Made by a program: the position numbers and the translations under genes
DNA from: Alphaproteobacteria bacterium
Lineage (GTDB): Bacteria > Pseudomonadota > Alphaproteobacteria > UBA828
Direction of reading: 5' to 3'
NCBI GenBank assembly: GCA_963667785.2
Contig: CAXXMU010000005.1
Location: 320,001 to 384,000 of the forward strand
Length of the DNA: 64,000 nucleotides
Shown here: positions 3,783-47,754 of the stretch, piece after piece
Position numbering within the stretch: the first letter of the stretch is position 1
Layout of the letters: each line of letters starts with the position of its first letter
Notes under the pieces: generated by a model
What the model was told of the DNA's origin: nothing
What the model saw: only the letters and a program-made list of their open reading frames with translations
Databases searched by the model: none

Positions 3783-3963
3783 GGCGCCATTCTCGGGCAT
3801 TTCGGGCCGTGGGCATAGCCGCGCAACCGACGCGCTGCCGGTCTCTCCCGTAAAGATCGAAGGCCGTTCGTCCGGGGCCCTCTTCTCGGATCGTCGACAG
3901 GATTCGTCACCCATCGGCTTCCGAGACGCAGCCCCGGATGGACAACCTATTGAGAGATCACAG

Positions 3964-26137: not shown

Positions 26138-26277
26138 TTTCGTATTTCGTCCAGTTTCGAGACGTTTGAATAACGCGGTGAATCAATGCGCTTATTGTGA
26201 AAGTCCTGTCTTGCGCCGTTTTGCCGTGTCCCGTATAATCCCGCTTTATTTAGGGAGTAGGAAAGAGGGTGGACCGA

Positions 26278-28732: not shown

Positions 28733-29089
28733 ATGTCTCGAAAGCGAGCCGAGAGCGCCAACTACGTAGCCCGCGCACACTCCGTTCACAGCAGCGGCGT
28801 TGACTTCGATGCGGTCAACGCGGCAACGATGGTTCACTTGCCGGCGCTATGTATCCGTTGGCTTCCCGACGGACGACGCGAAGGCCACGAGTGGTCTGCG
28901 CGCAATCCGCGCCGTGTGGATCGGCGGCCCGGCTCGTTCAAGGTGAACCTGATTACTGGCCGGTGGGCCGACTTCGCTCTGACGGATGCGCGCGGCGGTG
29001 ATCCCGTGTCGCTCGCCGCGTATCTGTCCGGCCGGTCGCAGACTCAGGCCGCACGCGCCTTGGCCGCTATGCTCGGGCTAGACAAATGA
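28733..29089 (+). CDS. Stand-alone primase N-terminal (zinc-finger-like) domain protein
   Basis: WLPDGRREGHEW..RNPRR.DRRPGSFKVNL.TGRWADFA...GGDPVSL. ATGA overlap with the next gene. Confidence 0.7.
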   Translation: MSRKRAESANYVARAHSVHSSGVDFDAVNAATMVHLPALCIRWLPDGRREGHEWSARNPRRVDRRPGSFKVNLITGRWADFALTDARGGDPVSLAAYLSGRSQTQAARALAAMLGLDK

Positions 29090-31856: not shown

Positions 31857-33044
31857 ATGCCGAAGCGCAGTACCCTCAGACTGACCAAGCGGATTGTGGA
31901 CGGGCTCAAGGCCGACGGCAAGGACGCCATCTTCTGGGACCGCGACCTTGCCGGCTTCGGCGTGCGGGTGCATGCCACGGGACGCAAGCTCTATATCGTC
32001 CAGTCCAGAGGGCCGGCAGGCCTGAAGCGGATGACGCTCGGGCGGGTCGGCACCGGGACCATCGAGGACCGCCGGCGCGAGGCATCCGTCGTCATCGACC
32101 GCATTAAGCGGGGCGAGGACCCCAAGCCGTCGAAGCCGCCGCCACCGCCCACGGTCGCCGACCTGTCCGAACTCGTACTCAAGAACTACGTCGAGACGCG
32201 CTGCAAGCCGAGCACGGCCAAAAACTACCGAGTGTCGATCCGGAACCACATCTTGCCCGCCCTGGAGACGAAGGCGCTCGAGGATGTCGGGTCCGAGGAC
32301 CTCACGGCGCTCCACCACAAGCTGCGGGCGACACCGGCGGCGGCCAACCAGGCCATGTGAGTGCTGTCGAAGATGTTGTCGTTGGGCGAGAGCTGGGGGA
32401 TGGTGCCGCCCGGCCGCAAACCGGGCCGGCATGTCCGCCATTACCGCGGGAAGCCCCGCGAGCGCTTCCTGACCCCGGAGGAGTTCCGGCGGCTGGGGAC
32501 GGCGCTGAAGATGTTCGAAGCCAAGGGCTCGATGGTGCCCTCGGCGATCGCCGCGATCCGCCTGCTGATGCTCACCGGCTGCCGAACGGACGAGACCCTC
32601 ACCCTGAAATGGGATGACGTCGACCGCACGGCGCGGGTCTAGCGCTTGCGCGATTCGAAGACCGGACCGCGCATGGTGCCGCTGACCGGGCCGGTGCTCA
32701 AAGTGCTGGACGGCATCGAGCGGGCCAAAGGGGTTCCCTGGGTACTCCGGGGCACGAAGCCCGAGTCCCGGCTGGCCTGTCTTTCCTCGTATTGGCAGAG
32801 GATCAGGAGAGAGACTGGCCTCCACGATGTGCGCGTCCACGACCTGCGACACTCGTTCGGCAGCCACGCAGTGCTACAAGGCGTCCCGCTACCGATTATC
32901 TCCCGCCCGCTCGACCACAAGCGGTCGAGCATGACGCTGCGCTATGCCTATGTCGGCGACCGGGAGATCGAGGCAGCGGCGGAACGCATCGGAGCGGCTA
33001 TCGCGCGAGCATTGAATGGTAGCGCGACCAAATGCAATGCATAG
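31857..33044 (+). pseudogene. Tyrosine integrase pseudogene
   Basis: One frame interrupted by TGA 32358 and TAG 32640. Retains FWDRDLAGFGVRV, LTGCR, DSKTG and HDLRHSF; LGH has degenerated to LDH. Confidence 0.88.
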
Positions 33045-33324
33045 TGCGCACCATCAATCGGCGGTTCTATCGTCAAGACCTCGCTTAGTAGGGCGGATTT
33101 AGTTGATCGATATTCTAGACAAGGAACTACTTCTAAGGCTATGGAAGATTGTTGATCAACCGTCGCATTTCTTGCAGGTCTCTCAGGAATTAGAGGTACC
33201 GTCTTTCATTTCCGTGGAACCCACACGAGTTCGTAGTCTTTTGTAACTATTTGGACTTGATCCCAAAAGCGCGATAGTACTACAAAGGGACTATATTTCT
33301 AACAGTCGAACCGGAGAAGGATCG

Positions 33325-33981
33325 ATGCTGTCGATCGCGGAGGAAATTGTACTCCTGGCACTGGACGATGAGACCGGCAAGCTGAACACGCGGCTGCCGG
33401 TTCACTCTCTGCGCAACGCGGTCAGCGGCGCCCTGCTAATGGACCTCGCCTTCGAGAACCGCATCGACACCGACCTGCACCGCCTCATCGTCATCGACGC
33501 GGCGCCGCTTGGCGCGCCGGTCCTGGATGACGTTCTCGCGCAGATCGCCAGCGACGAGGAGGAGCGGGAGACAGGCCATTGGGTTCACCTGATCGCCGGC
33601 GAGTACGAGACGCTGCAGCCGCAATTGCTGGGTCGTCTGGTTGCACGTGGAATCCTGTCCCAGCAAGAGGGCAGGCTGTCCTGGCTTATTGGCGTCCGTC
33701 GCTATCCGACCGTCGACGATCGTCCCCAGCGCGATGTGAAGCAGCGGATCATGGACACACTGCTGAGCGACGTGATCCCCGACCCACGCGACATCGCCAT
33801 CATCTGCCTGGCCGACGCCTGTGCCCTGTGGCGCGGCGTGATCGACGAGCGCGAGCTGGCCGATGCCAAGCCCAGAATCGAGCAGATCGTCAAGATGGAC
33901 CTGATTGGCCAGTCGGTCACCCGCACGATTCGCGAACTGCAGGACGCCACGCGCGGTGAAGAGGCCAAGTGGTTTCGCTGA
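33325..33981 (+). CDS. GPP34 (GOLPH3/Vps74-like) family protein
   Basis: LSIAEEIVLLALDDETG, GALLMDLAFENRIDTD, RLVARGIL, RRYP, IPDPRD, with a good RBS. Confidence 0.8.
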   Translation: MLSIAEEIVLLALDDETGKLNTRLPVHSLRNAVSGALLMDLAFENRIDTDLHRLIVIDAAPLGAPVLDDVLAQIASDEEERETGHWVHLIAGEYETLQPQLLGRLVARGILSQQEGRLSWLIGVRRYPTVDDRPQRDVKQRIMDTLLSDVIPDPRDIAIICLADACALWRGVIDERELADAKPRIEQIVKMDLIGQSVTRTIRELQDATRGEEAKWFR

Positions 33982-33993
33982 CCCACGTTCCGT

Positions 33994-34938
33994 TCAGACC
34001 ACCCATTGCAAGAGGAAGGCCACGGCGACGCTGACGGCGAGGCCGATGAAGCCCTTGAAGGCGTCCTTGACGACGATCATCGTGGTCTCGCGGTTCGACC
34101 GCAGGTGCGTGTCCAGCGCCACGGCGAACTCGCGGCCGGCCAGCAGGCCGAGGAACACCCAGGTGGTGCTCATGGGCACATTGCTCAGCTCCTTGAAGAA
34201 GAACAGGATGAGCCCGTAGATCAAGTCGATTATCGTCGCCGAGCGGATGTCCTGGGTGTTGATCTTGGTGGTGACGATGCGCTGGATCTCTCCGCCGCGC
34301 CGGTAGAAAATCCAGGCGTGCAGCACCACCATCACACCGATGACCATGATCAGCATTTCGGGCCCCAGCGAGCGGGGCAGATAGACCACGATATTGGCGA
34401 GGTCCTGGACCAGCCACTGGCTCCACAGGAACGCGGTGGAAAGCCATTGCAGCACCACCCAGTATGGTGCCGGTGGGCGGCTTGATGTCTCGATAAACCG
34501 GCGCTCGACGACGCGGGTTACGAACTTGTACACCAAGTAACCGACGACCGCGGCCACCGCATAGCCCAGGAGGGACTTGGTGAGCATGCTGGTCAGCCCG
34601 CGCGGGTTGAAGGCGGTCAGGACCAGAAACGTCGTGCTGACGGGGATACCGAGGCGCGTGAGACCGAGGATCACCAATGGCGGAATTATCATCCACCAGG
34701 CGTGGGTCTCGATCTCGGGGATTTTCGACAGCCGGCCGTAGGCCACATCGCCGTCATTCATGAAATAGCCGTATAGAAACACGGCAACGAGGATGCTGCT
34801 TGCGTATAGCCACAGAATCCACCAGGGCCGACGGGCGTTCGAGGCGAGAAACGTGCCCAGGGTTTGAATCGCGTCGTTGGCGACCACTGCATATGCCGCT
34901 AGCAAGAAGCCGACGTACATGTAGATTTCAGTGGTCAT
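33994..34938 (-). CDS. Multi-TM membrane protein, distant PiT-like transporter
   Basis: VANDAIQT and VQDLAN pseudo-repeat, with paired IPVSTTF / VPMSTTW motifs. Confidence 0.6.
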   Translation of the reverse strand: MTTEIYMYVGFLLAAYAVVANDAIQTLGTFLASNARRPWWILWLYASSILVAVFLYGYFMNDGDVAYGRLSKIPEIETHAWWMIIPPLVILGLTRLGIPVSTTFLVLTAFNPRGLTSMLTKSLLGYAVAAVVGYLVYKFVTRVVERRFIETSSRPPAPYWVVLQWLSTAFLWSQWLVQDLANIVVYLPRSLGPEMLIMVIGVMVVLHAWIFYRRGGEIQRIVTTKINTQDIRSATIIDLIYGLILFFFKELSNVPMSTTWVFLGLLAGREFAVALDTHLRSNRETTMIVVKDAFKGFIGLAVSVAVAFLLQWVV

Positions 34939-34961
34939 GGCAGGTTTGGCCGCGAACGCGG

Positions 34962-35801
34962 TTAACTGGCGGCTCTTCCCAGGAGTCGTCGCAAGGCGCG
35001 CCGGGAGTGGGCAGAGAACAGGGCGGCGCTGCCGAGGACGAGCGCGAAGAGAACCAGCGCCGCCACCACGATCGAGGGACCTGAGGGCGTGTCCCAAACG
35101 AGGGAGCCGTGAAGCCCGCCTGCCACCGACACTGCCCCGATCACGCTCGCAAACAACGCCATCTGCTCGGGCGTACGCGCCAGCCGTCGCGCCGTCGCCG
35201 CCGGAATGATCAGGAGCGACACGATAAGGAGCAGACCGATGATCTTCATGGCGATCGCCACGGCGAGCGCGATCAGTAGCGTGAAGGCGATGCGGACGAG
35301 GCCGACCCGCACGCCCTCGGCCCGCGCGAGTTCTTCATGGACGGTGATGGCCAGCAGAGGCCGCCAGATCAGCGCTGTCGCGATGAGGACGGCTCCGCCG
35401 CCGCCGTAGATCCAGATCAGATCGCGGCCGCTGACCGCCAGGATGTCGCCGAACAGGTAGCTCATCAGGTCCACCCGCACGCTCTCGAAGAAGCTGATCC
35501 CGACGAGGCCGACGGCGAGCGCGCCGTGCGCGAGGATGCCGAGCAGCGTATCCGTGGCCAGTCGCCGCTGCCGCTCCAACAGCAGAAACAGCAGGGCGAG
35601 CGCGACACAGGTGAGGATGATGCCAACATTGATGTCGATGCTCAGCGCAATACCGAGGACGACGCCGAGCAGCGCGCTGTGGGCGATCGAAGCTCCGAAG
35701 TAGGACATACGCCGCCACACGATGAAGCAGCCGAGCGGCCCGGTGGCGAGCGCTACGCCGATGCCGCCGGCAAGCGCGCGCGCGAAGAAGTCGTCGAACA
35801 C
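34962..35801 (-). CDS. znuB: Zinc ABC permease
   Basis: GPLGCFIVWRRMSYFG, DTLLGILAH, DLMSYLFGDILAV, DTPSGPSIVV. Confidence 0.9.
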   Translation of the reverse strand: MFDDFFARALAGGIGVALATGPLGCFIVWRRMSYFGASIAHSALLGVVLGIALSIDINVGIILTCVALALLFLLLERQRRLATDTLLGILAHGALAVGLVGISFFESVRVDLMSYLFGDILAVSGRDLIWIYGGGGAVLIATALIWRPLLAITVHEELARAEGVRVGLVRIAFTLLIALAVAIAMKIIGLLLIVSLLIIPAATARRLARTPEQMALFASVIGAVSVAGGLHGSLVWDTPSGPSIVVAALVLFALVLGSAALFSAHSRRALRRLLGRAAS

Positions 35802-35810
35802 CGCGTGTCC

Positions 35811-36620
35811 TTAGCCGGCCTCGCCTGACGGCGAACCGGTGCTGGAATGGCCACGGTCGGCCGGAACCACCGAAACGGGGAGGCCGTGAGTATGGTCGTG
35901 CTCGTGGGTGTAGACAGCGACCGCGGCAGCGGCATGGGGACCGAACAGAGAAATGTATTCGGGATGCCGGCTCACCGCCTCTGGCTCGCCGGCGCAGCAG
36001 ACATGCCCGTTGATGCAGACCACCCGGTCGGTCGCGCCCAGCACCAGGTGAAGGTCGTGGGAAATGATCAACACGCCGCATCCGCGGCGGTCGCGCAGCC
36101 GGGCGATCAATTGATGCATCGCCAGTTGACCCGCGAAATCCACCTGCTGGACCGGTTCGTCCAACACCAGCAGGTCGGAATTGCGCAGCAGGGCGCGGGC
36201 TAGCAGGACACGCCTGTATTCGCCGCCGGAGAGGCTGCTGAGCTGGCGCTCCATCACCTCCGCCACTCCTACCTCGTCGAGAGTCGCTTCGGCCTCGGCG
36301 CGGCCGCCGCGCCCCGCCATCGCGAGGAAACGCCGGACGGTGAGCGGCAGCAGTTCCTCCGGCGCGATGCGTTGGGGGACGTACCCCACGATCAAGCCGG
36401 GCGCGTGGCGGACAGACCCCGAGTCCGGCTTGATAAGTCCGAGCAAGGCGCGCACAGCGGTGGTCTTGCCTGCGCCGTTCGGGCCGATCAGGCTCAGCAC
36501 CTCCCGCCGGCGAACCTCGATCGAGACCCGGTCCAGCACCGTGCGATCCCCGTAATGCACGATGAGGTCCTGGCCTGAGGCGAGCAGCGGCTCGGAGGCA
36601 GGGTCAGGCCCCTGGTTCAT
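35811..36620 (-). CDS. znuC: Zinc ABC ATPase
   Basis: GPNGAGKT, LSGGE, SHDLHLV, CINGHVCCAGEPE, and the YTHEHDHTH tail. Confidence 0.9.
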   Translation of the reverse strand: MNQGPDPASEPLLASGQDLIVHYGDRTVLDRVSIEVRRREVLSLIGPNGAGKTTAVRALLGLIKPDSGSVRHAPGLIVGYVPQRIAPEELLPLTVRRFLAMAGRGGRAEAEATLDEVGVAEVMERQLSSLSGGEYRRVLLARALLRNSDLLVLDEPVQQVDFAGQLAMHQLIARLRDRRGCGVLIISHDLHLVLGATDRVVCINGHVCCAGEPEAVSRHPEYISLFGPHAAAAVAVYTHEHDHTHGLPVSVVPADRGHSSTGSPSGEAG

Positions 36621-36850
36621 GCGGTCGGCGGATGCATCGCGCCATGAGGGAAACTGCCTCACGGCCCGGTCATCGCCATGCGCGGTCGCCCTAGGGCCGG
36701 AACTCGATCCCCTTCGCCACATGCGCGGATGACGGGCGCGCCCTTGCGCGGCGTTGCTCCACATGCAATCGCCGACCTCCGCTCGAAGTGGCTTTCATCG
36801 CCGGTGCTTGCCATGTCGAGCGCTTCCCCCTCGCGACCGCCTGGATTCGA

Positions 36851-37339
36851 TCAGAAGAATACCATCAGCAGCATGATCCCGGCCGCTCCCCCCACGATGA
36901 AGGCGACGGTGCTGATAATGCCGGTTAGCGTTGCCCAGTCGGCCATCTGCCACGTTCGGGCTTCCACGTTGAACATGACGTCGGAGCGATCGCTGTCGCC
37001 GTCGACGAAGCGCTTCAGCGCGGATTCGGCGCCGTGGGCTTCCTTGATGGAGACGATGGTGACCAGGAACATGGTTAGCGCCGCCGTCAACGTGCCGATA
37101 CCGAACACCAGTATGGTCAACACTGCGAGCCAATGGAAAATGCCTTCAGTGTCGGTGCCCGTCGTGCTCATGAAGCCGATGATGAGGGCGGTGGCGCCGG
37201 CATTGCCGAACAGCAGGAAGCGCGTCGACTCGAGGATCATCCGGAACATGATGTTCCGGCGCATCGAGACGACCTTGTACCCTTCGCGGAGCCACTCCTC
37301 GCCGGTCTCCTCTAACGTGAAGTCTTCGAGTTTCTTCAC
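36851..37339 (-). CDS. Hypothetical 3-TM membrane protein
   Basis: Three hydrophobic segments. GTGA overlap with the upstream SBP stop. Confidence 0.65.
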   Translation of the reverse strand: MKKLEDFTLEETGEEWLREGYKVVSMRRNIMFRMILESTRFLLFGNAGATALIIGFMSTTGTDTEGIFHWLAVLTILVFGIGTLTAALTMFLVTIVSIKEAHGAESALKRFVDGDSDRSDVMFNVEARTWQMADWATLTGIISTVAFIVGGAAGIMLLMVFF

Positions 37340-38568
37340 TCGCCGGTCTCCCTCGTGCGCACGGAACCGACAATATGCTCTAACCGAACGTAGTCTGACC
37401 CGACGTTCGCGCCTTCATGGAAGACGATCACCCAGTCGTCGATGTGGACGGGGGTCGGCGCCAGCGCCGCTTCCAGGAATGCTTCCCGAGTGAGCTCCTC
37501 TGGCATTCGCTCCAACACGTCGATGAGGAAGCGACCCAGGATGTAGCCTCTGAGCGACAGCGAATCCGCCTCGCGCTCTCTGGCCGCCGGTTCGGCCTCC
37601 CTGTAGGCGTCGAGGGTTGCGCGGAAACGCTTCAGCAGCGCGACGTTGTTATCTCCGAGGTCCGGCGTAACTCTTGTCGCTAGCACCAGCGCATCCTGGT
37701 CATTTACCAACTCCCTCAAACGCTCCATGCTTATGAAGGACAGAGTCGCCATGACGTAGCCATGGCCGAGAGTCGTTGCCGTATTGATCAATTCGGCTAC
37801 TACCCCAGAAGTCGCTGCGAACATCACCACGTCCAAGTCGGCCTTGGCCATGACAAACGCGGCCCCATGAACGGCATGGGTATTCCGCGAATAGGAAGAC
37901 TTGGCGAGGATGGGCAGGTCGAGGGCGGTCAGTGCGTCATGGAAGTGCTTCAGAATCGAGCGGCCGAACGCGTCGTCCTGATAAATGATGCCAAACCGGC
38001 GAGCTCGCTCATGGTCGTACAAGTGGTTGACCAACAATTGTACTTCCTCTCGGTAGCCGGCGTGAAGATTGACCACGTTCGGGTTTCGCTCGGCGTCCCT
38101 CAGGAATTCCGCTCCGCTGAAAGGACCGACGAAGGGCATCATCGCCGAACGGAAAATGGGCAGCATGCGTTTGGCAGTCGGCGTTCCGACGCTGCCTATA
38201 ACCGCGAAAACCTCGTTTTCGACGACGAACTGTCTCGCGTTGGCTACAGCGGGATTCGGTTCGTAGCCGTCATCTCGCGTTACGAGCTTCAACTGTCTGC
38301 CGTGTACACCTCCTTCGGCGTTTCTTTCGTGAAAGGCGGCGAGTAGGCCGGCGCGATACTGACGGCCGCCGTGCTCGCCGGGACCCGAGAGGGGGGCGCT
38401 CTGACCGAAAGTGATGGCGTCTTCGGTCACTCCCGGCGCAGCTGCGGCAGGTGCGGCGCACCATGCTGCGCCGACGACGAGCGCGACGGCGAGCGCCGCG
38501 AGACACTTGCCCATCGGTGGCACCGTCCTCCCTGCCTTCATCCTCTCCTGCCGCCGAGTGCGATTCAC
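37336..38568 (-). CDS. LivJ-type (type I) periplasmic binding protein
   Basis: Signal peptide, GVTEDAITFGQSAPLSGP, GGVHGRQLKL..RDDGYEP, VGTPT, YQDDAFG. The true start may be ATG 38541. Confidence 0.85.
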   Translation of the reverse strand: MNRTRRQERMKAGRTVPPMGKCLAALAVALVVGAAWCAAPAAAAPGVTEDAITFGQSAPLSGPGEHGGRQYRAGLLAAFHERNAEGGVHGRQLKLVTRDDGYEPNPAVANARQFVVENEVFAVIGSVGTPTAKRMLPIFRSAMMPFVGPFSGAEFLRDAERNPNVVNLHAGYREEVQLLVNHLYDHERARRFGIIYQDDAFGRSILKHFHDALTALDLPILAKSSYSRNTHAVHGAAFVMAKADLDVVMFAATSGVVAELINTATTLGHGYVMATLSFISMERLRELVNDQDALVLATRVTPDLGDNNVALLKRFRATLDAYREAEPAAREREADSLSLRGYILGRFLIDVLERMPEELTREAFLEAALAPTPVHIDDWVIVFHEGANVGSDYVRLEHIVGSVRTRETGE

Positions 38569-39956
38569 TGCGCGGCCTCCACGCCCGTCTCCGCCGGTGC
38601 CTCAGCGTCAGCCTTCTTTTTCTTCTCTTCCGTTCCGGTCTTCGACACGTCCTGAGCGCTTCCGCTCTCGGCCCCTTCGTCGACGACGGTCCGGTCCACC
38701 ATGGGAGGCTCGTTCGCTTCCGCCGCCGCGGCGACGCTCGTCAGGGGAGCATGGCGATGGTCGAAGATCGAAAGATCATCGAAGATCAACGAACGCGGAT
38801 TGGCGATCGTCATGTGGTCGCGTTCGCTCAGGCGAGTGTGAAGCCGTCCGTCGAGGAGGAAACGATCCGCTTCAACAGCTTCCAGACCGTGCGCGCCCGA
38901 CTCGCTCGCAGTCGTGATCGACGTCCGCGCGCCGGCCAGATTCTCCGTAGGAACGGAGGCCGTCGTCGTCGGCGCCGGCCCGCGCCCGATGCCGGGATGT
39001 ATCCCTTCGATCATGTTGACGTCGATCACCGACGTGTCGCCGGGGTTCACGGCCGAGAGTGTGGCATCGCGGAAGATGCTACGCATGCGCTGCCAGTATC
39101 GCGTGATTGTCACGGAGGCCGGCTCGCTTCGATAGGCCGCCAGCAGATCCAGGAATGCCCCCGCGCTGCTCTCTGCTTGAATCCGCCGTTCCCTTGCCCT
39201 GGCCGTCGCATCCATCAATACCGCCTCGGCTTGGCCCCGGCTTCGGGCCAGGAGTCTCTCCCTCTCGCGATTGGCGTGGCTGACGGCCTGAACGCTCTCG
39301 GCGATGGCGTCGCTCACATCGCGGAAGGCGGCAACGGTCTCGTCGATGGGGCGAAGATCGACGATGTTGAGCGCCAGCAGCTCGATGCCGATGTCGTTGG
39401 CATCGAGGTAGTCCAGGGTGTCCGTGTGCAGCTCGGCCTGAATCGCGTCACGATTGTTGGTGAAGATGAGATCGATGAAGTGCCGGCCCATGATCTCGAT
39501 CAGGCGCTCTCGCACGATGACCCGCAACACCGTTTCGGGATCGGTGGTCGCGTACAGGTAGTTCCTCAGATGGCCGATCCTGTATTGCAGGGCCACGTTC
39601 ACTTCGAACAGGTTCGTGTCTCCCGAGAGGATGGAGAAGCTGACGCTGCCGTCGCCGCCCTGCGAGGCCACGTTGTCACGCGTGATGCGCTTGACCTTGC
39701 GCACGTAAGCCCTTTCGACGACTGGAACCGCATAATGAATTCCGGGTGGGATCTCCTCGTCCACCACCTTGCCGAAGCGTGTCAGGACCCCCTGTTCCTC
39801 CTTCTTCACGACATAGATGCCGGTCGCCAGGACCGCGATGATCGTGATGGCGGCCAGCGCCACCAGGATCAGCACCCTGTGATCCCGCACGTAGTCGAAG
39901 GTCGCGTAGATGACGCGCGTGCTCGGTGGGAGACTCTCGGTGGTGGGTTCCGACAT
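38565..39956 (-). CDS. hflK: HflK-like SPFH protein with long C-terminal extension
   Basis: TM then TGIYVVKKEEQGVLTRFGK, PGIHY..P, ILSGDTNL, AAFRDV, RSRGQAE, and FLDLLAAYRSEP. Confidence 0.75.
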   Translation of the reverse strand: MSEPTTESLPPSTRVIYATFDYVRDHRVLILVALAAITIIAVLATGIYVVKKEEQGVLTRFGKVVDEEIPPGIHYAVPVVERAYVRKVKRITRDNVASQGGDGSVSFSILSGDTNLFEVNVALQYRIGHLRNYLYATTDPETVLRVIVRERLIEIMGRHFIDLIFTNNRDAIQAELHTDTLDYLDANDIGIELLALNIVDLRPIDETVAAFRDVSDAIAESVQAVSHANRERERLLARSRGQAEAVLMDATARARERRIQAESSAGAFLDLLAAYRSEPASVTITRYWQRMRSIFRDATLSAVNPGDTSVIDVNMIEGIHPGIGRGPAPTTTASVPTENLAGARTSITTASESGAHGLEAVEADRFLLDGRLHTRLSERDHMTIANPRSLIFDDLSIFDHRHAPLTSVAAAAEANEPPMVDRTVVDEGAESGSAQDVSKTGTEEKKKKADAEAPAETGVEAAQ

Positions 39957-39968
39957 GATCCCGTCTCG

Positions 39969-40871
39969 CTACTGCGATTCCGGCGCCGGTATTTCGTTGC
40001 TGTCGAGATACTTGAAGAGTTCGTTGTCGGCCGGCAGCATCAGCGTGGTGTTCTGGTCGATGATCGAATCGTAGCTGTCGAGCGCGCGGATGAACTTGTA
40101 GAAGTCCGGGTCCTCGCGATACGCGGTGGCGAGAGTCGCCATGGCGTCGGCTTCGGCCCGGCCGAGGATGGTGGTCGCCTCGGCGTGGGCGTGCGCCATG
40201 ATTTTCTCGTGCTCGTTGATGGCGTGCGCCTCGATCCGCATGGCCTGCTCTTCGCCTTCGCTGCGATAGCGGGCGGCGATGCGGGCACGCTCGGAGATCA
40301 TCCGCTGGATGATGCTGGGCCGGTTTGCCGCCGGCAGCGTGTACTCGACGAGGCCCGCGCGGATGACGTCGATACCATAGTCCGCGGCGGCAATGGGCTT
40401 GACCTGGTCGAGTATCTCCCGGGACGCGATGGTGAGGTCTTCGTTCGCCAGTCCGAGGCTCACGAAGGCGTCGCGGGACTTGTTGCTCACCACGATGCCG
40501 ACACTCGCCCGATACAGATCGCCCAGCCGCTCGATAGCCCTGGCCTCGGTTCGGACGGATTCCACGTAGCGAATGGGGTCGGTAATGCGCCACAGCAGGT
40601 AGCCGTCCACCAGAACGTTCTTCTGGTCCTCGGTTATGAACTCCTGCGTGAGGCCGGTCAGCGGGCGCACGCGCCTGTCCACCTTGTACACCCGTGAGAT
40701 GGGCCACGGGTACTTGGCGTGCAGGCCGGGCTCCTTCGGCGGCTCAGTAATCTTGCCGAAGTGGGTGAGAACGCCCTGTTCCGATTCGTCGATGACGTAG
40801 AGACAGTCGTAGACGACGATGGCCACGAACAGGATTGCGATGGCTGCCGCTACTCGCTTCTTCGTTATCAT
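39969..40871 (-). CDS. hflC: HflC-like SPFH protein
   Basis: EPGLHAKYPWP, ITEDQKNVLVD, RMISERARIAARYRSEGEE, DPDFYKFIRALDSY. Confidence 0.8.
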   Translation of the reverse strand: MITKKRVAAAIAILFVAIVVYDCLYVIDESEQGVLTHFGKITEPPKEPGLHAKYPWPISRVYKVDRRVRPLTGLTQEFITEDQKNVLVDGYLLWRITDPIRYVESVRTEARAIERLGDLYRASVGIVVSNKSRDAFVSLGLANEDLTIASREILDQVKPIAAADYGIDVIRAGLVEYTLPAANRPSIIQRMISERARIAARYRSEGEEQAMRIEAHAINEHEKIMAHAHAEATTILGRAEADAMATLATAYREDPDFYKFIRALDSYDSIIDQNTTLMLPADNELFKYLDSNEIPAPESQ

Positions 40872-40929
40872 GGCTGGCTTCCCATCGTTCCGTTCGCGGA
40901 GGCGCTCCGACGCGTGATCGGCGTCCGTC

Positions 40930-43209
40930 TCAGTGATGAGGGGGCTCGGGGGCGCCGTTCCACGATTTCCACAGCGCAACCCGGTTCAGCGTGTCGTCGC
41001 TCGGGACAATGATCTTGCTCTTGTTAGCGAGGGAGGATTCCAGCTTCTCGCGCCACAGCATGGTCTCGAGCACCTCGGGCGCGGTCCCGACGGCTTCGGC
41101 GATCACGCGGATAGCGTCGCTCTCCGCCGCCGAGATGACCGTTCTGCGGGTGGCGTCGCCCTTGGCCTGTTCGAGCTCGTACGCCGCGTTGCCGTGCGCC
41201 CTGGGTATCAGCGAAACCAGGAACCGCTGCGCGTTGACGATGATGCGCTCCCTGTCCTCCTGCGAGCTCGATACCTCGCGGAAGGCGTTCATGGCGGCAT
41301 CGATCGGTGCAACCGAGAGCAGGCTAACTTTGACGATGTCGACGGCGTCGAGCACCTCGCTGTCGCCCTCGGGGATGCGGCCCCGGAATACGTCCTCGAT
41401 GCGATCCTGCAGCGCCACGCGCTCCACGTTGAGCAGGTCGTCCAAGGTCCGAGCGGAGACGAATTTGCGCAGCTCGCGGCGTATGTTGTCGCCGATCGCC
41501 TGCTGCGGGCTGTCGACGCGATAGTGATAGGTGTAGGGGTCGCTGACGCGGTACTGCATGCTCACCGAGAGCGACATCAGGTTGAGATCGCCGGTGAGGT
41601 ACTCCTGCGTCTCACCGCTGGCGATGGACTTGACCTCGCGCACGGGCCACTTGTCGGCCCTGGCAAACGGTGCGGGCGGCAGATAGTGCAGACCGGGTTG
41701 CAGATCCTTCCACACCACCGCGCCGAACAGGCGTCCGTAGCCGACCTCGCCGGGGCGAACGACGGTCAGGCCGCTCAGCACGAATACGGCGATGGCGATC
41801 AGCCAGACGCCGATTCCGGCAGACCGGCGCGGGTCGATGGCGCCGATGAGTGGCGCATCACCCGTCATCCGGAGCCACCACCGCTTGGCGGGGGCGAACC
41901 AGGGGCCGACGTTGGAGACCAGGTCCTGGTATCCGCTCTTCAGCGCGCCCGCGCGGAAGCGCCAGACGATGAGCGCGGCAAGCCCCAGCGCAGATGCCCA
42001 CTGCACCACCATTATTGCCGGGGAGTCGGACGCATCCAGGTTCACGGCGAGGGACACCCCGAGGGAGAGCAGGGCCAGATCGATGATGATGCCCAGCACC
42101 ACCGTCACCGCGACCACCGAGCCCACGTAGATCGACGCGAAGCGCAGGCCGAATTGGCTGATGATGATCGCGATCGTGCCGGTGTTAGTGGCCGGGCCGG
42201 TCATCAGGAAGATGGCCGCCGCGCCCGGGCTGAACCCCTTGGCGATCAGGGCTGCGGCGATGGGCGTGCTGGCCGAGGCGCAGATGTAGAGCGGCACGCC
42301 GACCAAGACCATGATGGGATAGGAGATCCAACGGGCGTGCTCGTACTGCATCAGGTCGCTCGGGATGACCATGAAGAGCACACCGCCAAGCGCAAGGCCC
42401 ACCAGCAGGGCGAAGAGAATGTCGTCGGCGACCTCGACGAAGCCGTAGCGAAGGATGTGTTTGCAGACGGTGGTGAACGTGAGGTCACTCTGCTCTTGAT
42501 CCGCTTTTTCTTCTTCTTGGGGGGAGGGTGCGTCCCGAGACGGCGAGAGTATCTCGCGGTAGAACTCCGGCTTGATCCAGGTCATGGACCGGACGCGCCC
42601 GATACGTTCGACCGCACGGCGCAGCCAGGCGTCGAAGAACGCCCTGAATTCTCTCGGGCGGACGTAGCAGTCGTCCTCTCCCCAGCGGAGAGGCTTGTGA
42701 CCGTGGTCGTGATCGTGACCATGGGCGCAGCTGTCGTCGTGCTCGTGCTCGTGGTCGTGATCGGCAGCGGAGGGGGCCGTCCGGGCCTCGTCACGGCCGC
42801 GGATCAACCCGATGCAGAAGATGCCGGCGACAACGCCCGTAATGAAGCTCATGACCGGCCGCACGAGGGCCGGAATCGGGCCGAAGAACGCGTTGGTGAC
42901 GAGAATCGAGTCCGCGCCCGTCTCCGGCGCAGTAATCAGGAACGACATGCACGACGACCGCGAGGCTCCCTTGCGCCGCATCTCCGCCACGACCGGCACC
43001 ACGGAACAGCTGCAAAGCGGCATCGGCACGCCGATGGCAGCACTGGTACTGACGGATTTCAGGCTGTCGTGACGCAGCCACCTTTGGGTGGCCTGTCTTG
43101 AGATGAACACGTGGATCAGCCCGGCCAGGAACAGGCCGAGCAGGAGCATCGGCGACAGCAGCAGGAAGGACGACCAGAAGAAGTCCAGGAATCCGACGAT
43201 CTGTGTCAC
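40930..43209 (-). CDS. DUF318/SO_0444-type metal permease fused to a C-terminal SPFH (HflK-like) domain
   Basis: PLCSCSVVP, FLITAPETG.DS, His-rich loop DHDHEHEHDDSCAHGHDHDHGH, LYICASASTP and GPATN; then VVRPGEVG..RLFG, PGLHY, YLTGDLNL, AFREV and PRAHGNA. Confidence 0.85.
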   Translation of the reverse strand: MTQIVGFLDFFWSSFLLLSPMLLLGLFLAGLIHVFISRQATQRWLRHDSLKSVSTSAAIGVPMPLCSCSVVPVVAEMRRKGASRSSCMSFLITAPETGADSILVTNAFFGPIPALVRPVMSFITGVVAGIFCIGLIRGRDEARTAPSAADHDHEHEHDDSCAHGHDHDHGHKPLRWGEDDCYVRPREFRAFFDAWLRRAVERIGRVRSMTWIKPEFYREILSPSRDAPSPQEEEKADQEQSDLTFTTVCKHILRYGFVEVADDILFALLVGLALGGVLFMVIPSDLMQYEHARWISYPIMVLVGVPLYICASASTPIAAALIAKGFSPGAAAIFLMTGPATNTGTIAIIISQFGLRFASIYVGSVVAVTVVLGIIIDLALLSLGVSLAVNLDASDSPAIMVVQWASALGLAALIVWRFRAGALKSGYQDLVSNVGPWFAPAKRWWLRMTGDAPLIGAIDPRRSAGIGVWLIAIAVFVLSGLTVVRPGEVGYGRLFGAVVWKDLQPGLHYLPPAPFARADKWPVREVKSIASGETQEYLTGDLNLMSLSVSMQYRVSDPYTYHYRVDSPQQAIGDNIRRELRKFVSARTLDDLLNVERVALQDRIEDVFRGRIPEGDSEVLDAVDIVKVSLLSVAPIDAAMNAFREVSSSQEDRERIIVNAQRFLVSLIPRAHGNAAYELEQAKGDATRRTVISAAESDAIRVIAEAVGTAPEVLETMLWREKLESSLANKSKIIVPSDDTLNRVALWKSWNGAPEPPHH

Positions 43210-43610
43210 GGCACTGGCTTGCTTGGCAGTGGAATGACGAGCCTGAATCGCGACGGGTTTGCGAACCGCGCCACGATCCTGCCTCGGCGGGCCGGGCCAT
43301 ACCGGGGGATGCGGGGCGATCTCGGCATGGTCATGGCGGTCCGGCCGCTCGCATGCCGGTCAGCACGCGGCCCCGTCTTCGGCCAAATCGGCGTCGCCGG
43401 GAACGTCTCGAAGTGGGTGCGTGGCAGGTCTTCATCGCCCATCCCGCACACTGTCTGGGAGCACCTTCGCCGTCGGGCAAAGGAACGTTCGCCTTGAACG
43501 ACAGTATCAAGCGCGAGAGAGTCTGCCCAAATTCTTTTCTTTGACACGATCCAACAAAAACTTATTCGCGACGGGGGTTGCCCACTGCTGAAATCTTCAA
43601 TCGAATACTT

Positions 43611-43628
43611 GTTATCTTATATCGTTAC
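43611..43628. promoter_or_regulatory. Putative Zur box
   Basis: GTAACGATATAAGATAAC (minus strand) matches the Zur-type palindrome GTAATGTTATAACATTAC (consensus recalled from memory) at 14/18. AT-rich site upstream of a zinc-related operon. Confidence 0.5.
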
Positions 43629-43635
43629 ATGTGCG

Positions 43636-44149
43636 CGCGACGACGCGATCCGGGAGATTCTCGAGACGGTGCGGGCGACGGCGGCGCGCATAAACGCGCT
43701 CCAGGAGGCGTCAGGCCCAGAACACGAGATGGCAGAAGCGCTGGCTCGCGAGACGGCGGCGATGACGTAGGCCGCCGAGGATGTGCGCGGTGCGCTCGCC
43801 AAGGCGGCAGAGCTCGCCGGTAAGCAGGACGGACAGGCGACTGCCGGAGCACAGGCGCTGGCCAAGAGCGTCGCCGCGCTGAAGGCCCAGGGCGAGGCGC
43901 TCGACAAGCGCATCCGCGCGACGGGCACGCAGGCGCAGGCGAACGCCGGGCAGGCGGAGGCCGCCGCCTAGGGCATTGCCGAGATGAAGGAGGCAGCGGT
44001 GGCGCCCATGTCTGACAGATCTGGCCATAGGGTCTGCGTCGTTCGTTTTCTTCGTGCTGGGCGCCGTGCTGCAGCGGGAGACCGACGTCGTTTCCTTCGG
44101 CGACCCCCGCCACGAGTGGAGCGAGTATGTCGAGGAGCACTACTGTTAG
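43636..44149 (+). pseudogene. Degraded Ala-rich coiled-coil protein with C-terminal TM segment
   Basis: RDDAIREILETV...MT*AAEDV...EAAA*GIAEMK with TAG at 43768 and 43969, then a frame change to SFVFFVLGAVLQRE. No start codon. Confidence 0.55.
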
Positions 44150-44878
44150 TCGATCAGCTTCGCTTTGAGAAAGGCAGCCACAAGATTGCGACGCTCACCA
44201 ACAATGGAGGTGGTCGCATTCGACTTGAGGCGGATCCGGAGGGCGCGCTCGCCCAACTGGACGGGCTAGGTGCGGGGGATTGGGAAGTCGCGACGCGGCT
44301 CGTGTTCAACAGTTGGCTCTCTTCTGCCGGTCCCGACGCGAGCATTTGAAGCTGGTAGCCGTGCGCCGCTAGCCAGCGTCAGAGCGGCCATGCGCATAGT
44401 CCAGAAGTCGTCGTCACGCGCAGTTCAATTTCGACCTGGAACTTCATCCCAATTTGGTTAGTTTCTCGAATCCAGCTTGAGCCCCCAATGGTTCGCGGAG
44501 TCGCTCTCGGTGAATCCGGTCCAGGACCGGCACCTTCTCGAGTGACGGAGCTGATGCTCTCAACACCAAGTGCTCAGGATGGTGCCTCTTGGCTCGCCAC
44601 CCACCGCCGAACTCCCATCCCCAAGCCGCGAGGCCTCCAGCCGCCCCGGGGGCTGGTCAGCAACGCGTATCGTGTCCAACAGTTGGATTGAGCGTTACGC
44701 TCATCTCGATCTTTCACGAACGCTTTCCGATTCAGACCGATAGCCGTGCGGCGAAGCCTTGAGCAGCTCGAACAGAAGGGTGGGCTCGAGATGGGAGCGA
44801 TCAACTGATCACACCTCGCCGCGCGGCAAAGGGCGCTTGAGAACGCCGATCTGGGGTAACAGTACGAAGAGCGAGACA

Positions 44879-45226
44879 ATGCCAAGACCACCGGAGGGGA
44901 TGTTGCCGACGAGCAGTAGTCCGTGGACGACGATGGCGGAGAAGCAGTGGAGACAGACGCGGCCGATCATGGTGAAGCGCTTGGAGGAGGTCGGACAACT
45001 GAGCCGGGCGCTGAGGATGGCGGTGGACGCGACATCGGAGCAGATGTTCGAGGTGACGGCGAGGGGCGTGGAGCCGACAGCGGCGAGGTAGGCCGCGATG
45101 AGCGAGAACCTTCTGCTCCCGGACGAGAGGGAGGTTCCGGATCTGCCGGCGGATCTCGTTCCCCTCGCGTACCAAGAAACAACTATTCCGTCGGTGAAGC
45201 AAACGATTTTGGAAGAGATCACTTGA
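44879..45226 (+). pseudogene. Small mobile-element protein relic (loosely TnpV-like)
   Basis: MAEKQWRQTRPIMVKRLEEVGQL...TAAR*AAMSENLLLPDE. One internal TAG at 45089 in a purine-rich coding-like frame. Confidence 0.4.
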
Positions 45227-45928
45227 CCTAAAGAGGTGCAAAACGGAGACGAAGATTTTACCAACGATGTGTTGGCAGAATAATCCATCGATAGGTGAAG
45301 CCTATGAGCTCGCTGGCCGAGCTAACAGACGCGGCGTAGGAGATTAGGGGGTTTTCAGCGGATGGCACAAAAGACTTGGCTCTGACTGCTCCGCCCGAAC
45401 CCCCTACGCATGAGACCGGTGAAGGAACGCCCTTTGCCAATGGCCATCTCTCCCCGCCGATCAGGCTCCGACGGGGAGGTCAATCAATCCCTGCATGCGT
45501 TCACGAGGCGGAGGGTTAGAGATTTTCCTCACCACTCGCAGGACACCACACCACGCGCCCACGGCCTGATCGGCCAGCCCTTTTTGGACCCAATCCGTAC
45601 CGGATGCACAGAGGACTCCTAGAGGTCGGAGGACCCGTCGGATGGGACCCGTAGGCCCCCCTACCCCAGCGATTTCCTGTCTGCAGGGGCAGAGTGGTTT
45701 CTTCGATCCCATGTGTGTGCTTCAAGCAGCCCGAACGCACAGCCTTGGTGCCCACCACCCCACCATGCGCACGGTTGAGTGCGCACCCCAAGACTCGGAA
45801 ACTCGTTGCGGTAGGAGGTGCAGCGCTGGCCATTGAGCTCCGGCGTTGCCGGCGAACCACCCCCTGCCAGCCCCTATGCTAAGACGATCAGCGCTTGGCG
45901 GGATGGATGACGGGGAGGGAAAGATGTC

Positions 45929-46258
45929 ATGCGGCCGACGTCACGCGACGAGGCGGATTTCGACTGCGATGGCGCGGTACTGATGAAGAACGTTGTGCCG
46001 GCCAGATGGCTACGCGTGCTGGAGCAGGCGACCGAACGCGACATCGCGGAGTTGGGCGACGTGCTCGCTTTCCACGCGATGACCGTTCGCAGCGCCGGCG
46101 GCAACCTCACGACGGATGTGTGCAGGCACGGCTATGCGGTGCGCTGTTGCGGCGAGAGATGCACCGTCTTTGCCGGCCTTGGTCCGAACCGTGACCTGCG
46201 CAACCCGGCTCTCACCGACGGCGACACGCTCGATAGCGCGCAATACCCTGTTGTCTGA
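45929..46258 (+). pseudogene. PhyH-family dioxygenase remnant with internal deletion
   Basis: N-terminal FDCDGAVLMKNVV joined directly to C-terminal GDVLAFHAMTV.SAGGN...GYAVR...LDSAQYPVV. The HxD core is missing. Confidence 0.65.
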
Positions 46259-46701
46259 CCCTGACGCTGGCAGCGCGATCAGCGACTGTCGGCTGTGGAG
46301 AGAAAGCCCATGATCCAAAGGCTATCTCGTCTCCAGCTTGTTCATCCGGTTCGACGTCGAGGAGGTCATCCGGTTGGAGACGGACTTCGGAATCGCGGTG
46401 TTCGCGATCATCCTCTCGGTGGGCGTCGCCGACGCCATCCTACATCGACTCGACACAGGCTCGGGCTGGACTTCGTTCGACGCCGACGACAATGGGCGTT
46501 CAGGTAGCCTCGGTCGTGCTGGAGGTGGTGAAACCGAGAAGGGTTCCTTCTCGTTGGTTCGCAATCTGAGATGGACGGGATTGTCCCGAGCAGTTCCGGG
46601 GCGTATCGCGGAATCGCGTTGCGAATAGGGTTGTAAATAGGGAGCGTGGGGCGTCGTGGTCAGAAAATAACACTCTGAAACAATAACTTATCTAATAAGT
46701 G

Positions 46702-46791
46702 TGGCGGAGGGGGTGGGATTCGAACCCACGGTACGCTCGCGCGTACAACGGTTTTCGAGACCGCCCCGTTCGACCACTCCGGCACCCCTCC
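46702..46791 (-). tRNA. tRNA-Ser(CGA)
   Basis: GGAGGGG acceptor stem, GCGGT-CT-CGA-AA-ACCGT anticodon arm, long variable arm, GGTTCGAATCC, encoded CCA. 90 nt. Confidence 0.97.
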
Positions 46792-46821
46792 GCGGCCTGG
46801 CGCGCGTCGCGCGGCCCCTAT

Positions 46822-47694
46822 CTACGCCTGCGCGCCGCCCTCGGCAACCGCGGCTGCCGCGACGCTGCGCTCGTAGCCGGCGAAATCCTCTGTGCCGAGC
46901 ACGTGGCGTTCCATCCAGGCGGTGAACGCCTCGCGCGATCGCGCGATCGCGTCCCACGCCTCGTAGAACGTGTTGTCGCGGCGGTAGTAGCCGAGCGCAT
47001 AGGAGGGCCGGGCGCCGCCGGGCTCCTCGCAGACCGCGCTCACCACCCAATGCGGCAGGATGACGGCATTCGCCGGCGGCGCGAACTCGTCCACGATCTC
47101 CTCCACCGTGACGATCACCCGCCTGGACGCAAGCGCCACCTCCTTCTGCACGCCGGAGATGCCCCACAGCATCACGTTGCCCCTGGCATCCGCCTGCTGG
47201 GCGTGGAGCACCGCGACGTCGGGGCGGACGGCGGGCGAGGCCGCGAGTCGCTCGCCGGTGAAGGGGCATTCGATGAACTTGATGAGCGGGTTGTGCGCCG
47301 GCAGGTCGGAGCCGGCATAGCCCCGGATCACGCCGAAGGGGAGCCCGCTCGCGCCCGCGACATAGGCGTTGGCGAGGTCGGCATGGCTGCGCTCCTCGAT
47401 CTCCATGGGCCTGGGCCAGCCGTTCTCCACCGCGTCGCGGAAGCGGTGCAGCGAGCCCACCCCCGGATTGCCGCCCCAGGAGAAGACCAGGCGCCCGACG
47501 CAGCCCATGCCGATGAGCTGGTCGTAGATGAGGTCCGGCGTCATGCGCACCGCGGTGAGGTTGCGAAAGCCCGCGCGAATCACCGCGTGGCCCGCGGCAT
47601 GGGGGATCAGGTGGGTGAACCCCTCCATGGCGACGGTATCTCCCTCCTCGATGAGCGAGGACACCGCGTCGGCGAGCGGGACGATCTCGGCCAT
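46822..47694 (-). CDS. CoA-transferase subunit A (3-oxoadipate/glutaconate type, CatI-like)
   Basis: EGFTHLIPHAAGH, RMTPDLIYDQLIG, FSWGGNPGVGSLHR, PSYALGYY.RDN. Confidence 0.9.
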   Translation of the reverse strand: MAEIVPLADAVSSLIEEGDTVAMEGFTHLIPHAAGHAVIRAGFRNLTAVRMTPDLIYDQLIGMGCVGRLVFSWGGNPGVGSLHRFRDAVENGWPRPMEIEERSHADLANAYVAGASGLPFGVIRGYAGSDLPAHNPLIKFIECPFTGERLAASPAVRPDVAVLHAQQADARGNVMLWGISGVQKEVALASRRVIVTVEEIVDEFAPPANAVILPHWVVSAVCEEPGGARPSYALGYYRRDNTFYEAWDAIARSREAFTAWMERHVLGTEDFAGYERSVAAAAVAEGGAQA

Positions 47695-47754
47695 GCGCCG
47701 GGCGCGCGGTGACGCGGGCGTTGCGCTGCGGGGGAGGAAGCGGGCGCCTGGCGG

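Follow-up and report, generated by a model that had tools for sequence, protein, structure and literature searches.

The stretch of DNA analysed here, hereafter the window, comprises 64,000 nucleotides of contig CAXXMU010000005.1 (positions 320,001 to 384,000, forward strand) from an alphaproteobacterium of the UBA828 lineage, assembly GCA_963667785.2. Its minus strand carries a set of five colinear genes headed by a fusion. The first gene (40930-43209) encodes, in one open frame, a 759-amino acid (aa) protein in which a permease of the SO_0444/ArsP_1 type is joined to an HflK-type SPFH domain. It is followed on the same strand by an HflC-like gene (39969-40871; 300 aa from an MITKK start), an HflK-like gene (38565-39956; 463 aa, with an extra C-terminal tail), a gene for a periplasmic type-I binding protein (37336-38568; Peripla_BP_6, 410 aa, with a signal peptide) and a gene for a 162-aa membrane protein with about three transmembrane (TM) segments, which we call p162 (36851-37339). 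The stop codon of the HflK-like gene overlaps the start of the binding-protein gene, and the stop of the latter overlaps the start of p162, by 4 nucleotides (nt) each. An earlier reading of the window, made from the sequence only, had described an in-frame fusion of 759 aa followed by hflC-like and hflK-like genes, with three SPFH domains in series. The description is borne out by the single open frame, in which both Pfam domains are detected, and by the matches of the two following genes to TIGR01932 and TIGR01933, with Band_7 in both. The three SPFH genes of the unit were thus recognised; its extent was underestimated, since Peripla_BP_6 and p162 had been missed and the unit has five genes. 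Positions within the window are given as bare numbers, and C, G and L are our labels for contigs, genomes and related loci.

The fusion protein and its SPFH partners

Based on Pfam, the fusion protein contains ArsP_1 at residues 5-377 (E-value 4.6e-45) and Band_7 at residues 483-657 (4e-14). The permease matches the NCBIfam model of the SO_0444 family Cu/Zn efflux transporter (NF033936) over residues 11-415 with 325.6 bits against a cut-off of 300, and its second NCBIfam match is SaoE, a predicted heavy-metal efflux protein. The C-terminal half matches the hflK model over residues 501-740 with 123.2 bits, below the cut-off of 159.4. The chain can be divided into the permease (1 to ~420), a cytoplasmic linker helix (422-449), a TM anchor (463-478), the HflK-type SPFH domain (481-635), a 70-residue helix (637-707) and a C-terminal part. 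In the AlphaFold2 model, with a mean predicted local distance difference test score (pLDDT) of 85.1, the permease consists of two repeats, each with a broken helix, which falls at the CSCS motif in repeat 1 (residues 66-69; 43003-43014, minus strand) and at the CASAS motif in repeat 2 (residues 310-314; 42268-42282, minus strand). C66, C68 and C310 are invariant in 123 fusions. Between the two repeats lies a His/Asp-rich loop (residues ~145-175; 42685-42777, minus strand), which is disordered in the model (pLDDT <50 at 145-168) and, by the positive-inside rule, would be cytoplasmic; its residues H165, H167, H169 and H171 do not vary among 23 close homologues. The CSCS, CASAS and GPATN motifs and the His-rich loop to which the sequence-only reading had drawn attention are all present in the translation. 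A Foldseek search with the fusion model returned 50 matches at E<=0.001, all named SPFH or vault proteins, with HflK/C as the best, together with QmcA, prohibitin, stomatin, erlin, flotillin and vault; no PDB sequence homologue was found for the permease half. The genome has two further ArsP_1 permeases, at C1:341567-342388 and C6:550056-550925, in open frames of 454 and 551 aa, respectively, neither of them fused to Band_7.

All three SPFH proteins follow the domain plan of HflK/C, that is, an N-terminal TM segment, the SPFH domain, a coiled-coil helix and a C-terminal part. The HflC-like protein exceeds the TIGR01932 cut-off (169.9 against 134.4 bits) and aligns to residues 6-327 of the 334 residues of E. 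coli HflC. The HflK-like protein stays under the TIGR01933 cut-off (136.9 against 159.4 bits) and aligns to residues 81-353 of the 419 of E. coli HflK, and the HflK-type part of the fusion aligns to residues 89-344 of the same protein. All three are far under the cut-offs of the stricter models NF008181 and NF008259. Past the region aligned to E. coli HflK, the tail of the HflK-like protein holds a cassette-specific conserved block (residues 361-400; 38757-38876, minus strand), in which the commonest residue makes up 0.57-0.83 of a column across 73 loci, compared with 0.35-0.49 in the preceding linker.

The genome contains five Band_7 genes, the three of the cassette and a pair on contig C1 near miaA. 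The latter is the canonical pair, scoring 260.5 bits for hflK and 223.6 bits for hflC. The single FtsH match over the family cut-off in the genome is on contig C2 and there is none in the window, in agreement with the lack of FtsH context reported by the sequence-only reading. In a tree of 61 SPFH sequences with support from the SH-like approximate likelihood ratio test (SH-aLRT), three clades, each with 100% support and on stems of 1.9-2.1 changes per column, correspond to the fusion, the HflC-like proteins and the HflK-like proteins. Of these, the HflC-like one is sister to canonical HflC (99) and the two HflK-type ones join canonical HflK (99). The cassette clades therefore stand next to those of canonical HflK and HflC without being nested in them; together with the pair on C1, this matches the prediction of a separate clade and a second, canonical hflKC copy. 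A canonical hflK over the cut-off is also present in four of five other genomes that carry the cassette, the fifth, G004 of the Gemmatimonadota, having no HflK match over the cut-off except the cassette's own. In a Bryobacterales cassette genome, an HflK-type domain forms the C-terminal part of an 811-aa open reading frame (ORF) (L103, G003:C1:524621-528472; ORF 1393-3828, minus strand, open frame 1014 aa), which is a second kind of HflK fusion; it lies next to an hflK/hflC pair that resembles the canonical one.

Of the last two proteins of the unit, the binding protein was modelled with a pLDDT of 87.2, and its nearest solved structures (4kv7, 3lop and 4m88) all have an unassigned ligand. For p162, no Pfam or NCBIfam family was found. 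It is nevertheless the most conserved small part of the cassette, with 49-77% identity across phyla and invariant H69, E100, H102 and E105. At E<=0.001, a search through 5.8 billion clustered proteins finds only 361 members of its family; the 120 of these that were listed are all 162-163 aa long, nameless and without a Pfam family. A complex prediction of the permease (residues 1-445) with p162 scored 0.01 against a mark of 0.32, a result that bears neither way.

Recurrence and horizontal spread of the cassette

The fusion recurs widely. A search of the same 5.8 billion clustered proteins gave 771 matches at E<=0.001, of which the best 120 share 58-96% identity, nearly all over the full length, with both Pfam domains in 116. 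A profile-free scan of 1.84 billion representatives at 50% identity gave 1103 matches at E<=1e-30, and among the best 150 of these 101 are full-length fusions (660-860 aa, 24-60% identity). In the ESM Atlas, the corresponding cluster counts 1191 members, of which 100% have ArsP_1 and 99% Band_7. In the databases, the homologues carry the names 'SO_0444 family Cu/Zn efflux transporter' or 'HflK protein'. A one-off fusion, which the sequence-only reading had named as a possibility, is excluded by the recurrence among the best 120 and the best 150 homologues. An assembly chimera is likewise excluded, both by these homologues and by record 30 of the contigs from the independent run X8, which covers 41693-42294 and crosses the junction. 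Contigs of four public runs together cover all 30 bins of 36700-43700; runs with a share under 0.2 (X18-X23) were left out of account.

The genomic setting was studied in a scan with one genome per species, which found 229 relatives; the locus counts given below refer to the best 80, all from metagenome-assembled genomes. These comprise 20 loci from Gammaproteobacteria, 17 from Alphaproteobacteria, 16 from Latescibacterota, 10 from Terriglobia, 5 from Gemmatimonadota, 2 from Opitutia, 1 each from Spirochaetia, Dadabacteria, Nitrospinota and Syntrophobacteria, and 6 without a label, and the related loci represent at least 9 phyla. At 73 of the 80, all five genes, from the fusion through the HflC-like, HflK-like and binding-protein genes to p162, are colinear on one strand. 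Contig ends cut six of the remaining seven, and the last, L092, lacks the binding protein and p162 despite 6.6 kb of following sequence. The median gaps between the five genes are -4, 12, -17 and -4 nt (66-73 loci), a spacing that, as read from the gene positions, is typical of translational coupling and suggests that the five are expressed as one operon. On one alphaproteobacterial chromosome (L026:12637-15917), about 3.2 kb are inserted between the HflK-like and the binding-protein genes; at no other locus of the 80 is the cassette broken in this way.

More distant fusions from metagenomes, soil metagenomes included, share 24-46% identity with the window's protein and keep the order fusion, HflC-like, HflK-like. 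When metagenome contigs bearing fusions of 25-38% identity were searched by tblastn, the binding protein and p162 were not found. Since the distant fusions keep the trio without these two genes, the three-gene core is old, predating the cassette, and the five-gene form marks a derived clade. A gene of the acetamidase/formamidase family (FmdA_AmdA) stands directly upstream of the distant fusion at 30 of 63 metagenome loci; it often has a further Band_7 gene, the fourth, on its own upstream side, as in both loci checked with Pfam (L135:5881-7901 and L143:982-3315).

A search of 40 genomes related to that of the window, namely 20 species from its genus (the majority at least 92% complete), 4 from its family, 5 from its order and 11 from its class, gave no fusion match at E<=1e-20. 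When the same pairs of genomes are compared, the cassette proteins are 12-30 identity points closer than canonical HflK and HflC, and branches are short within the cassette clades and long within the canonical ones. Three pairings across phyla return in all three gene clades: Spirochaetota and Dadabacteria, Gemmatimonadota and Arenicellales, and Terriglobia and Nitrospinota. With 74 cassettes concatenated, the resulting tree requires 11 changes of phylum label against a minimum of 6, a count to be read knowing that bins can contain misplaced contigs and that many of the records are, by their titles, single-chromosome assemblies. The absence from the 40 relatives and the mixing of phyla in the cassette tree together indicate that the cassette moves horizontally. 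The sequencing runs that contain the stretch belong to 16 studies and are labelled sponge metagenome, coral reef metagenome or with coded organisms; the sponge- and reef-labelled runs X4 and X8 cover all 30 bins, most pieces being 90-99% alike. In agreement with these labels, sponges typically harbour Latescibacterota, Dadabacteria, Poriferihabitaceae and similar groups.

Zinc genes and Zur-type boxes around the cassette

Downstream of p162 in the window, on the same strand, lie znuC (35811-36764; NF007090 with 276 bits, under the cut-off of 306), whose true start is probably near 36620, and znuB (34962-35801; Pfam ABC-3 at 2.5e-72, and NF007089 with 261 bits, under the cut-off of 284). The sequence-only reading was right to place znuCB downstream; as a part of the core it does not hold up, because znuB/C is a variable neighbour found at 21 of the 80 loci. 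Other zinc genes take a similar place. A ZIP transporter follows p162 directly at 30 loci, in 23 of them on the same strand at a distance of 15-238 nt. ZnuA is found at 15 loci, often directly upstream and on the same strand. A CusA/CzcA-family RND pump (TIGR00914, 1070.8 bits) with its adaptor and outer-membrane protein accompanies the cassette at 22 to 25 loci. ZIP, ZnuA and ZnuCB are also neighbours of the distant fusions, as is SCO1, which lies beside one locus. No MerR/ZntR-type regulator and no ars or cop genes occur among the recurrent neighbour clusters. There is also no ftsH among the recurrent neighbours of close or distant loci, where no family search was aimed at it. The zinc link proposed in the sequence-only reading is thus found again in the neighbourhoods of related loci and, as described next, in their Zur-type boxes.

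The box of the window, TGTTATCTTATATCG on the plus strand (43610-43624), lies in an AT-rich stretch between the operon and a divergent plus-strand ORF. It was scored against TGTTATNNTATAACA, which we take to be the Zur-type consensus, and is one of three matches with two mismatches in the 4.09-Mb genome. A matrix built solely from ten sites of foreign genomes placed the box before the genome's own znuA second, and that of the cassette fifth, among all matches genome-wide. In 1.38 Mb of related loci there are 15 matches with up to two mismatches, 7 of which fall within the 450 nt upstream of the fusion, a region that makes up 2.6% of the sequence. L020 has a perfect TGTTATTTTATAACA upstream of the fusion, and AT-rich Zur-type palindromes stand at several alphaproteobacterial loci. 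Other matches to the pattern adjoin znu genes, as in the znuC-znuA spacer of L093. The spacer between p162 and znuC in the window has no AT-rich box; znuCB may therefore be read through from the cassette promoter. When the regions upstream of the fusion at the 80 loci were searched for perfect palindromes with 5-mer half-sites, none was present in six or more regions, and a strict filter for AT-rich palindromes found little there.

The genome's only ZnuA gene (C6:663402-664286) is preceded immediately by a gene for a membrane protein with a long His-rich run (G000:C6:662169-663143, plus strand), and a Zur-type box lies between the two. Three Fur-family proteins of the organism are candidates for Zur. 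The best match of the matrix, at C2:545661, stands about 95 nt before a gene (L203:759-2273) whose 504-aa product begins like a signal peptide, matches no Pfam family and is a candidate zinc-regulated envelope protein. Two further matches lie in a broad AT-rich stretch before a radical-SAM gene (C1:921304) and beside an aminotransferase (C2:729583). Considered as members of a Zur regulon, none of these three adds support.

The wider surroundings of the operon can be described briefly. A gene for a weakly PHO4/PiT-like membrane protein (33994-35097, minus strand) comes after znuB and has relatives of 55-58% identity near the cassette at L056:1285-2247 and L074:15017-15949; PiT carriers move metal-phosphate. 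A protein of the GPP34 (Golgi phosphoprotein 3) family (33325-33981, plus strand, 1.1e-44) adjoins the end of the operon on the opposite strand. A few kb past that end are a Toprim/DUF3631 primase-like gene (29086-31230, plus strand) and, farther on, a phage-type integrase (Phage_int_M, Arm-DNA-bind_3 and Phage_integrase; 26269-27501, plus strand). On the other side, a tRNA-Ser(CGA) gene lies 3.5 kb upstream of the operon (46702-46791, minus strand). The three ORFs tested in 43210-46700 have no Pfam match, and a coiled-coil-like frame on the plus strand, starting near 43625, is by eye broken by an in-frame TAG. A reading of the region as a genomic island is unsupported, as 24000-47200 contains no direct repeat of the tRNA-Ser end, and no island borders were set for this reason. 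An Rfam scan of 33000-48000 at E<=1 found nothing beyond the tRNA-Ser and chance-level matches, hence no riboswitch in the leader of about 400 nt. A scan of 33500-44200 for promoters and terminators gave 2 against 1.5 and 9 against 5.5 expected from shuffled sequence, which is near chance.

Comparison with known systems and possible functions

The nearest published analogue, judged by its description, is PA2439-PA2434 of P. aeruginosa, in which three HflK/C-family genes in a row, PA2437-2439, stand beside the Zn/Cu importer HmtA. The three genes are 9-14-fold up on zinc depletion (PMC4542158), their proteins also rise under that condition (PMC11761036), and Zur shifts the PA2439 promoter in an electrophoretic mobility shift assay (bioRxiv 10.1101/2021.05.28.446167). 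The gene set is alike in its three SPFH genes beside a Zn/Cu transporter and in the tie to zinc depletion and Zur; it differs in that the transporter is a separate P-type ATPase and not a fused ArsP_1 permease. Among 301 Pseudomonadales genomes, the fused form was found only in G005, already known as a carrier of the cassette, which makes it probable that the Pseudomonas trio is unfused; about 50 of the genomes have unfused permeases, and two have frames of 615-630 aa. We found no paper on the fused architecture, nor any that holds both PF03773 and PF01145. The statement of the sequence-only reading that no functional characterisation was known hence stands for the fused form; SPFH genes beside zinc transport as such have some precedent, because a Zur-regulated HflK/C trio is in print. 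The proteins of the cassette are already annotated automatically; it is the fused architecture that is unstudied.

E. coli HflK/HflC with FtsH (PDB 7vhp, 7wi3 and 9cz2) shares with all three cassette proteins the TM anchor, the SPFH domain, the long helix and the C-terminal part. There, two paralogues build the assembly, whereas here there are three long-stemmed clades, one of them fused to a permease, with the conserved tail block of the HflK-like protein, no FtsH context and a canonical pair elsewhere in the genome. QmcA-YbbJ (8z5g) and human stomatin with aquaporin 1 (9zd2) are similar in the SPFH fold and in a ring that holds a membrane protein. In these two the client is a separate polypeptide; in the cassette it is covalently attached, and three types of subunit would make up a hetero-oligomer. 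SO_0444 itself corresponds to the permease half as an equivalog over the cut-off, with the CSC motif and the two-repeat permease, but shares its operon with a ZntR-like regulator and is required when metal is in excess, unlike the five-gene cassette with its HflK fusion, Zur-type box and znu or ZIP neighbours. Finally, the tripartite TRAP (tripartite ATP-independent periplasmic) and TTT (tripartite tricarboxylate transporter) importers likewise combine, in genes that lie together, a periplasmic binding protein with a large permease and a small membrane subunit of about 160 aa. The likeness to the cassette is one of gene set only, as no homology to DctPQM or TctABC was found with Pfam and NCBIfam.

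Taking these results together, we propose that the translationally coupled five-gene operon encodes a membrane machine for zinc homeostasis in which the permease is held in an HflK/C-like assembly, and we give this proposal an even chance of being right. The HflC-like, the free HflK-type and the fused HflK-type subunits would assemble into an HflK/C-like ring or cage on the periplasmic face, as the retention of the TM anchor, SPFH domain, long helix and C-terminal part of E. coli HflK/HflC suggests. Because one HflK-type subunit forms the C-terminal half of the permease chain, such an assembly would hold several permease copies, and several copies of a secondary metal permease would be gathered in one membrane patch. 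The cage around the permease, with a periplasmic compartment for zinc capture, had been put forward in the sequence-only reading and is, as here, a proposal drawn from the homology to E. coli HflK/C. The transport site is presumably made up of C66, C68 and C310 at the two broken helices, and Zn(II) is its most likely substrate, Cu and Cd being possible ones. In the sponge and reef clade, the binding protein and the three-TM protein were added as fixed partners, recalling the tripartite importers. In the alphaproteobacterial versions, the window included, the operon would be under Zur control and switched on at zinc shortage together with znuCB, with a role in zinc acquisition or allocation rather than detoxification.

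A number of observations weigh against this proposal. The permease is over the cut-off in the SO_0444 efflux family, whose type member is needed under metal excess, so that zinc capture cannot be taken as the default reading. The binding protein is of the Leu/Ile/Val-type (LivJ-like, type-I) fold class with no evident metal site; H231 is its only invariant His, and it has no invariant Cys. The Zur-like box reported by the sequence-only reading is present, but it has two mismatches to the consensus used and its distance from the fusion start codon, about 400 nt, is far. By a rough estimate that assumes independent bases, about 4 such matches would be expected by chance per genome against the 3 found. 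Three of the five best matrix matches are not beside known zinc genes, and the 7 matches upstream of related fusions are spread over only 6 of 79 loci. The likeness to PA2437-2439 is drawn from published description only.

The same evidence can be read as metal detoxification, in which the fused permease would export Zn(II), Cu or Cd to the periplasm, the SPFH part would stabilise or gate it, and CzcCBA would then clear the periplasm. This explanation, which we regard as rather unlikely, draws on the equivalog match (325.6 against 300 bits), on the need for SO_0444 of Shewanella oneidensis under ZnSO4 or CuCl2 stress, where it is proposed as a copper/zinc efflux protein and has a ZntR-like regulator in its operon (PMC3219624), on the induction of a family member in Nitratiruptor by Cd and Cu (PMC10092412), and on the description of ArsP-family members as exporters (bioRxiv 10.1101/2022.07.06.499078). 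It also gains from the CusA/CzcA RND system, which, at 22 of the 80 loci by the lower count, lies upstream on the same strand in 12 and is separated by a gap of 75-199 nt in 7 of these, again to the disadvantage of the zinc-homeostasis proposal. However, the RND-to-fusion gaps range over 75-3210 nt and are far wider than those within the cassette, no MerR/ZntR-type regulator recurs as a neighbour, and the periplasmic binding protein is a fixed partner without an obvious role in efflux. The ZIP importers 15-238 nt after p162 in 23 loci also speak against detoxification, and the Zur-type boxes and same-strand znuA and znuCB point to expression at zinc shortage in the alphaproteobacterial loci. 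As for the direction of transport, the family assignment and the Czc neighbours argue for export, while the Zur-type boxes, the znu and ZIP genes, the binding protein and the Pseudomonas precedent argue for a role in zinc shortage, and it is to the latter that we lean for the operon of the window.

It is also conceivable that FtsH is at the centre, with the cassette proteins as extra HflK/C modulators that enclose it and the permease as a sensor or regulated substrate that tunes this zinc protease to metal. The near full-length homology of all three proteins to E. coli HflK or HflC and the HflC-like score over the TIGR01932 cut-off are consistent with such a function, and papers on P. aeruginosa treat PA2437-2439 as FtsH modulators (PMC11761036), of unknown role (PMC9431628). 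We nonetheless consider it very unlikely, given that the canonical hflKC pair is kept with far higher scores (260.5 and 223.6 bits), that the cassette stems of 1.9-2.1 changes per column set these proteins apart from the canonical clades, and that ftsH is absent from the window and from the recurrent neighbours, among which no family search was made for it; that G004, one of five cassette genomes examined, has no HflK over the cut-off but the cassette's own also counts against it. Similarly improbable in our view is a substrate other than zinc, such as Cu(I), Cd, an organoarsenical or another metalloid bound at the three-cysteine site, with the zinc genes as part of a general metal island. The Pfam family is ArsP_1, SaoE is the second NCBIfam match, SCO1 of the copper-chaperone family lies beside one distant locus, and selenocysteine variants exist of CSC, the most conserved motif of the family (bioRxiv 10.1101/2022.07.06.499078). 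On the other hand, ars, cop and MerR-type genes are missing from the recurrent neighbours and ZIP, ZnuABC and Czc recur at close and distant loci, and the His/Asp-rich loop fits a divalent cation.

A more far-reaching version of the zinc-homeostasis proposal, which we think quite unlikely, would have the assembly form a closed periplasmic vault of the HflK/C type. The permeases, as subunits of its wall, would feed zinc from the cytoplasm to a private chamber or draw it from there, and the binding protein inside would act as a carrier of metal or ligand that loads exported proteins or hoards zinc in times when host or seawater offers too little of it, the five-gene unit being traded among sponge and reef bacteria.

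Which roles bacterial SPFH proteins of the HflK/C, stomatin and flotillin types have beyond the control of FtsH has yet to be answered, chiefly owing to the difficulty of identifying their clients. In the cassette the client is written into the gene, as the metal permease and an HflK-type subunit are one polypeptide, and this common fusion architecture offers a direct system for asking how an SPFH ring acts on a transporter. The Zur-regulated trio of HflK/C-like genes in P. aeruginosa, which recurs in zinc studies and was never explained, could be understood through the cassette as well. An operon that is common to at least 9 phyla and present in sponge and coral-reef runs points to metal handling as a trait that is traded there.

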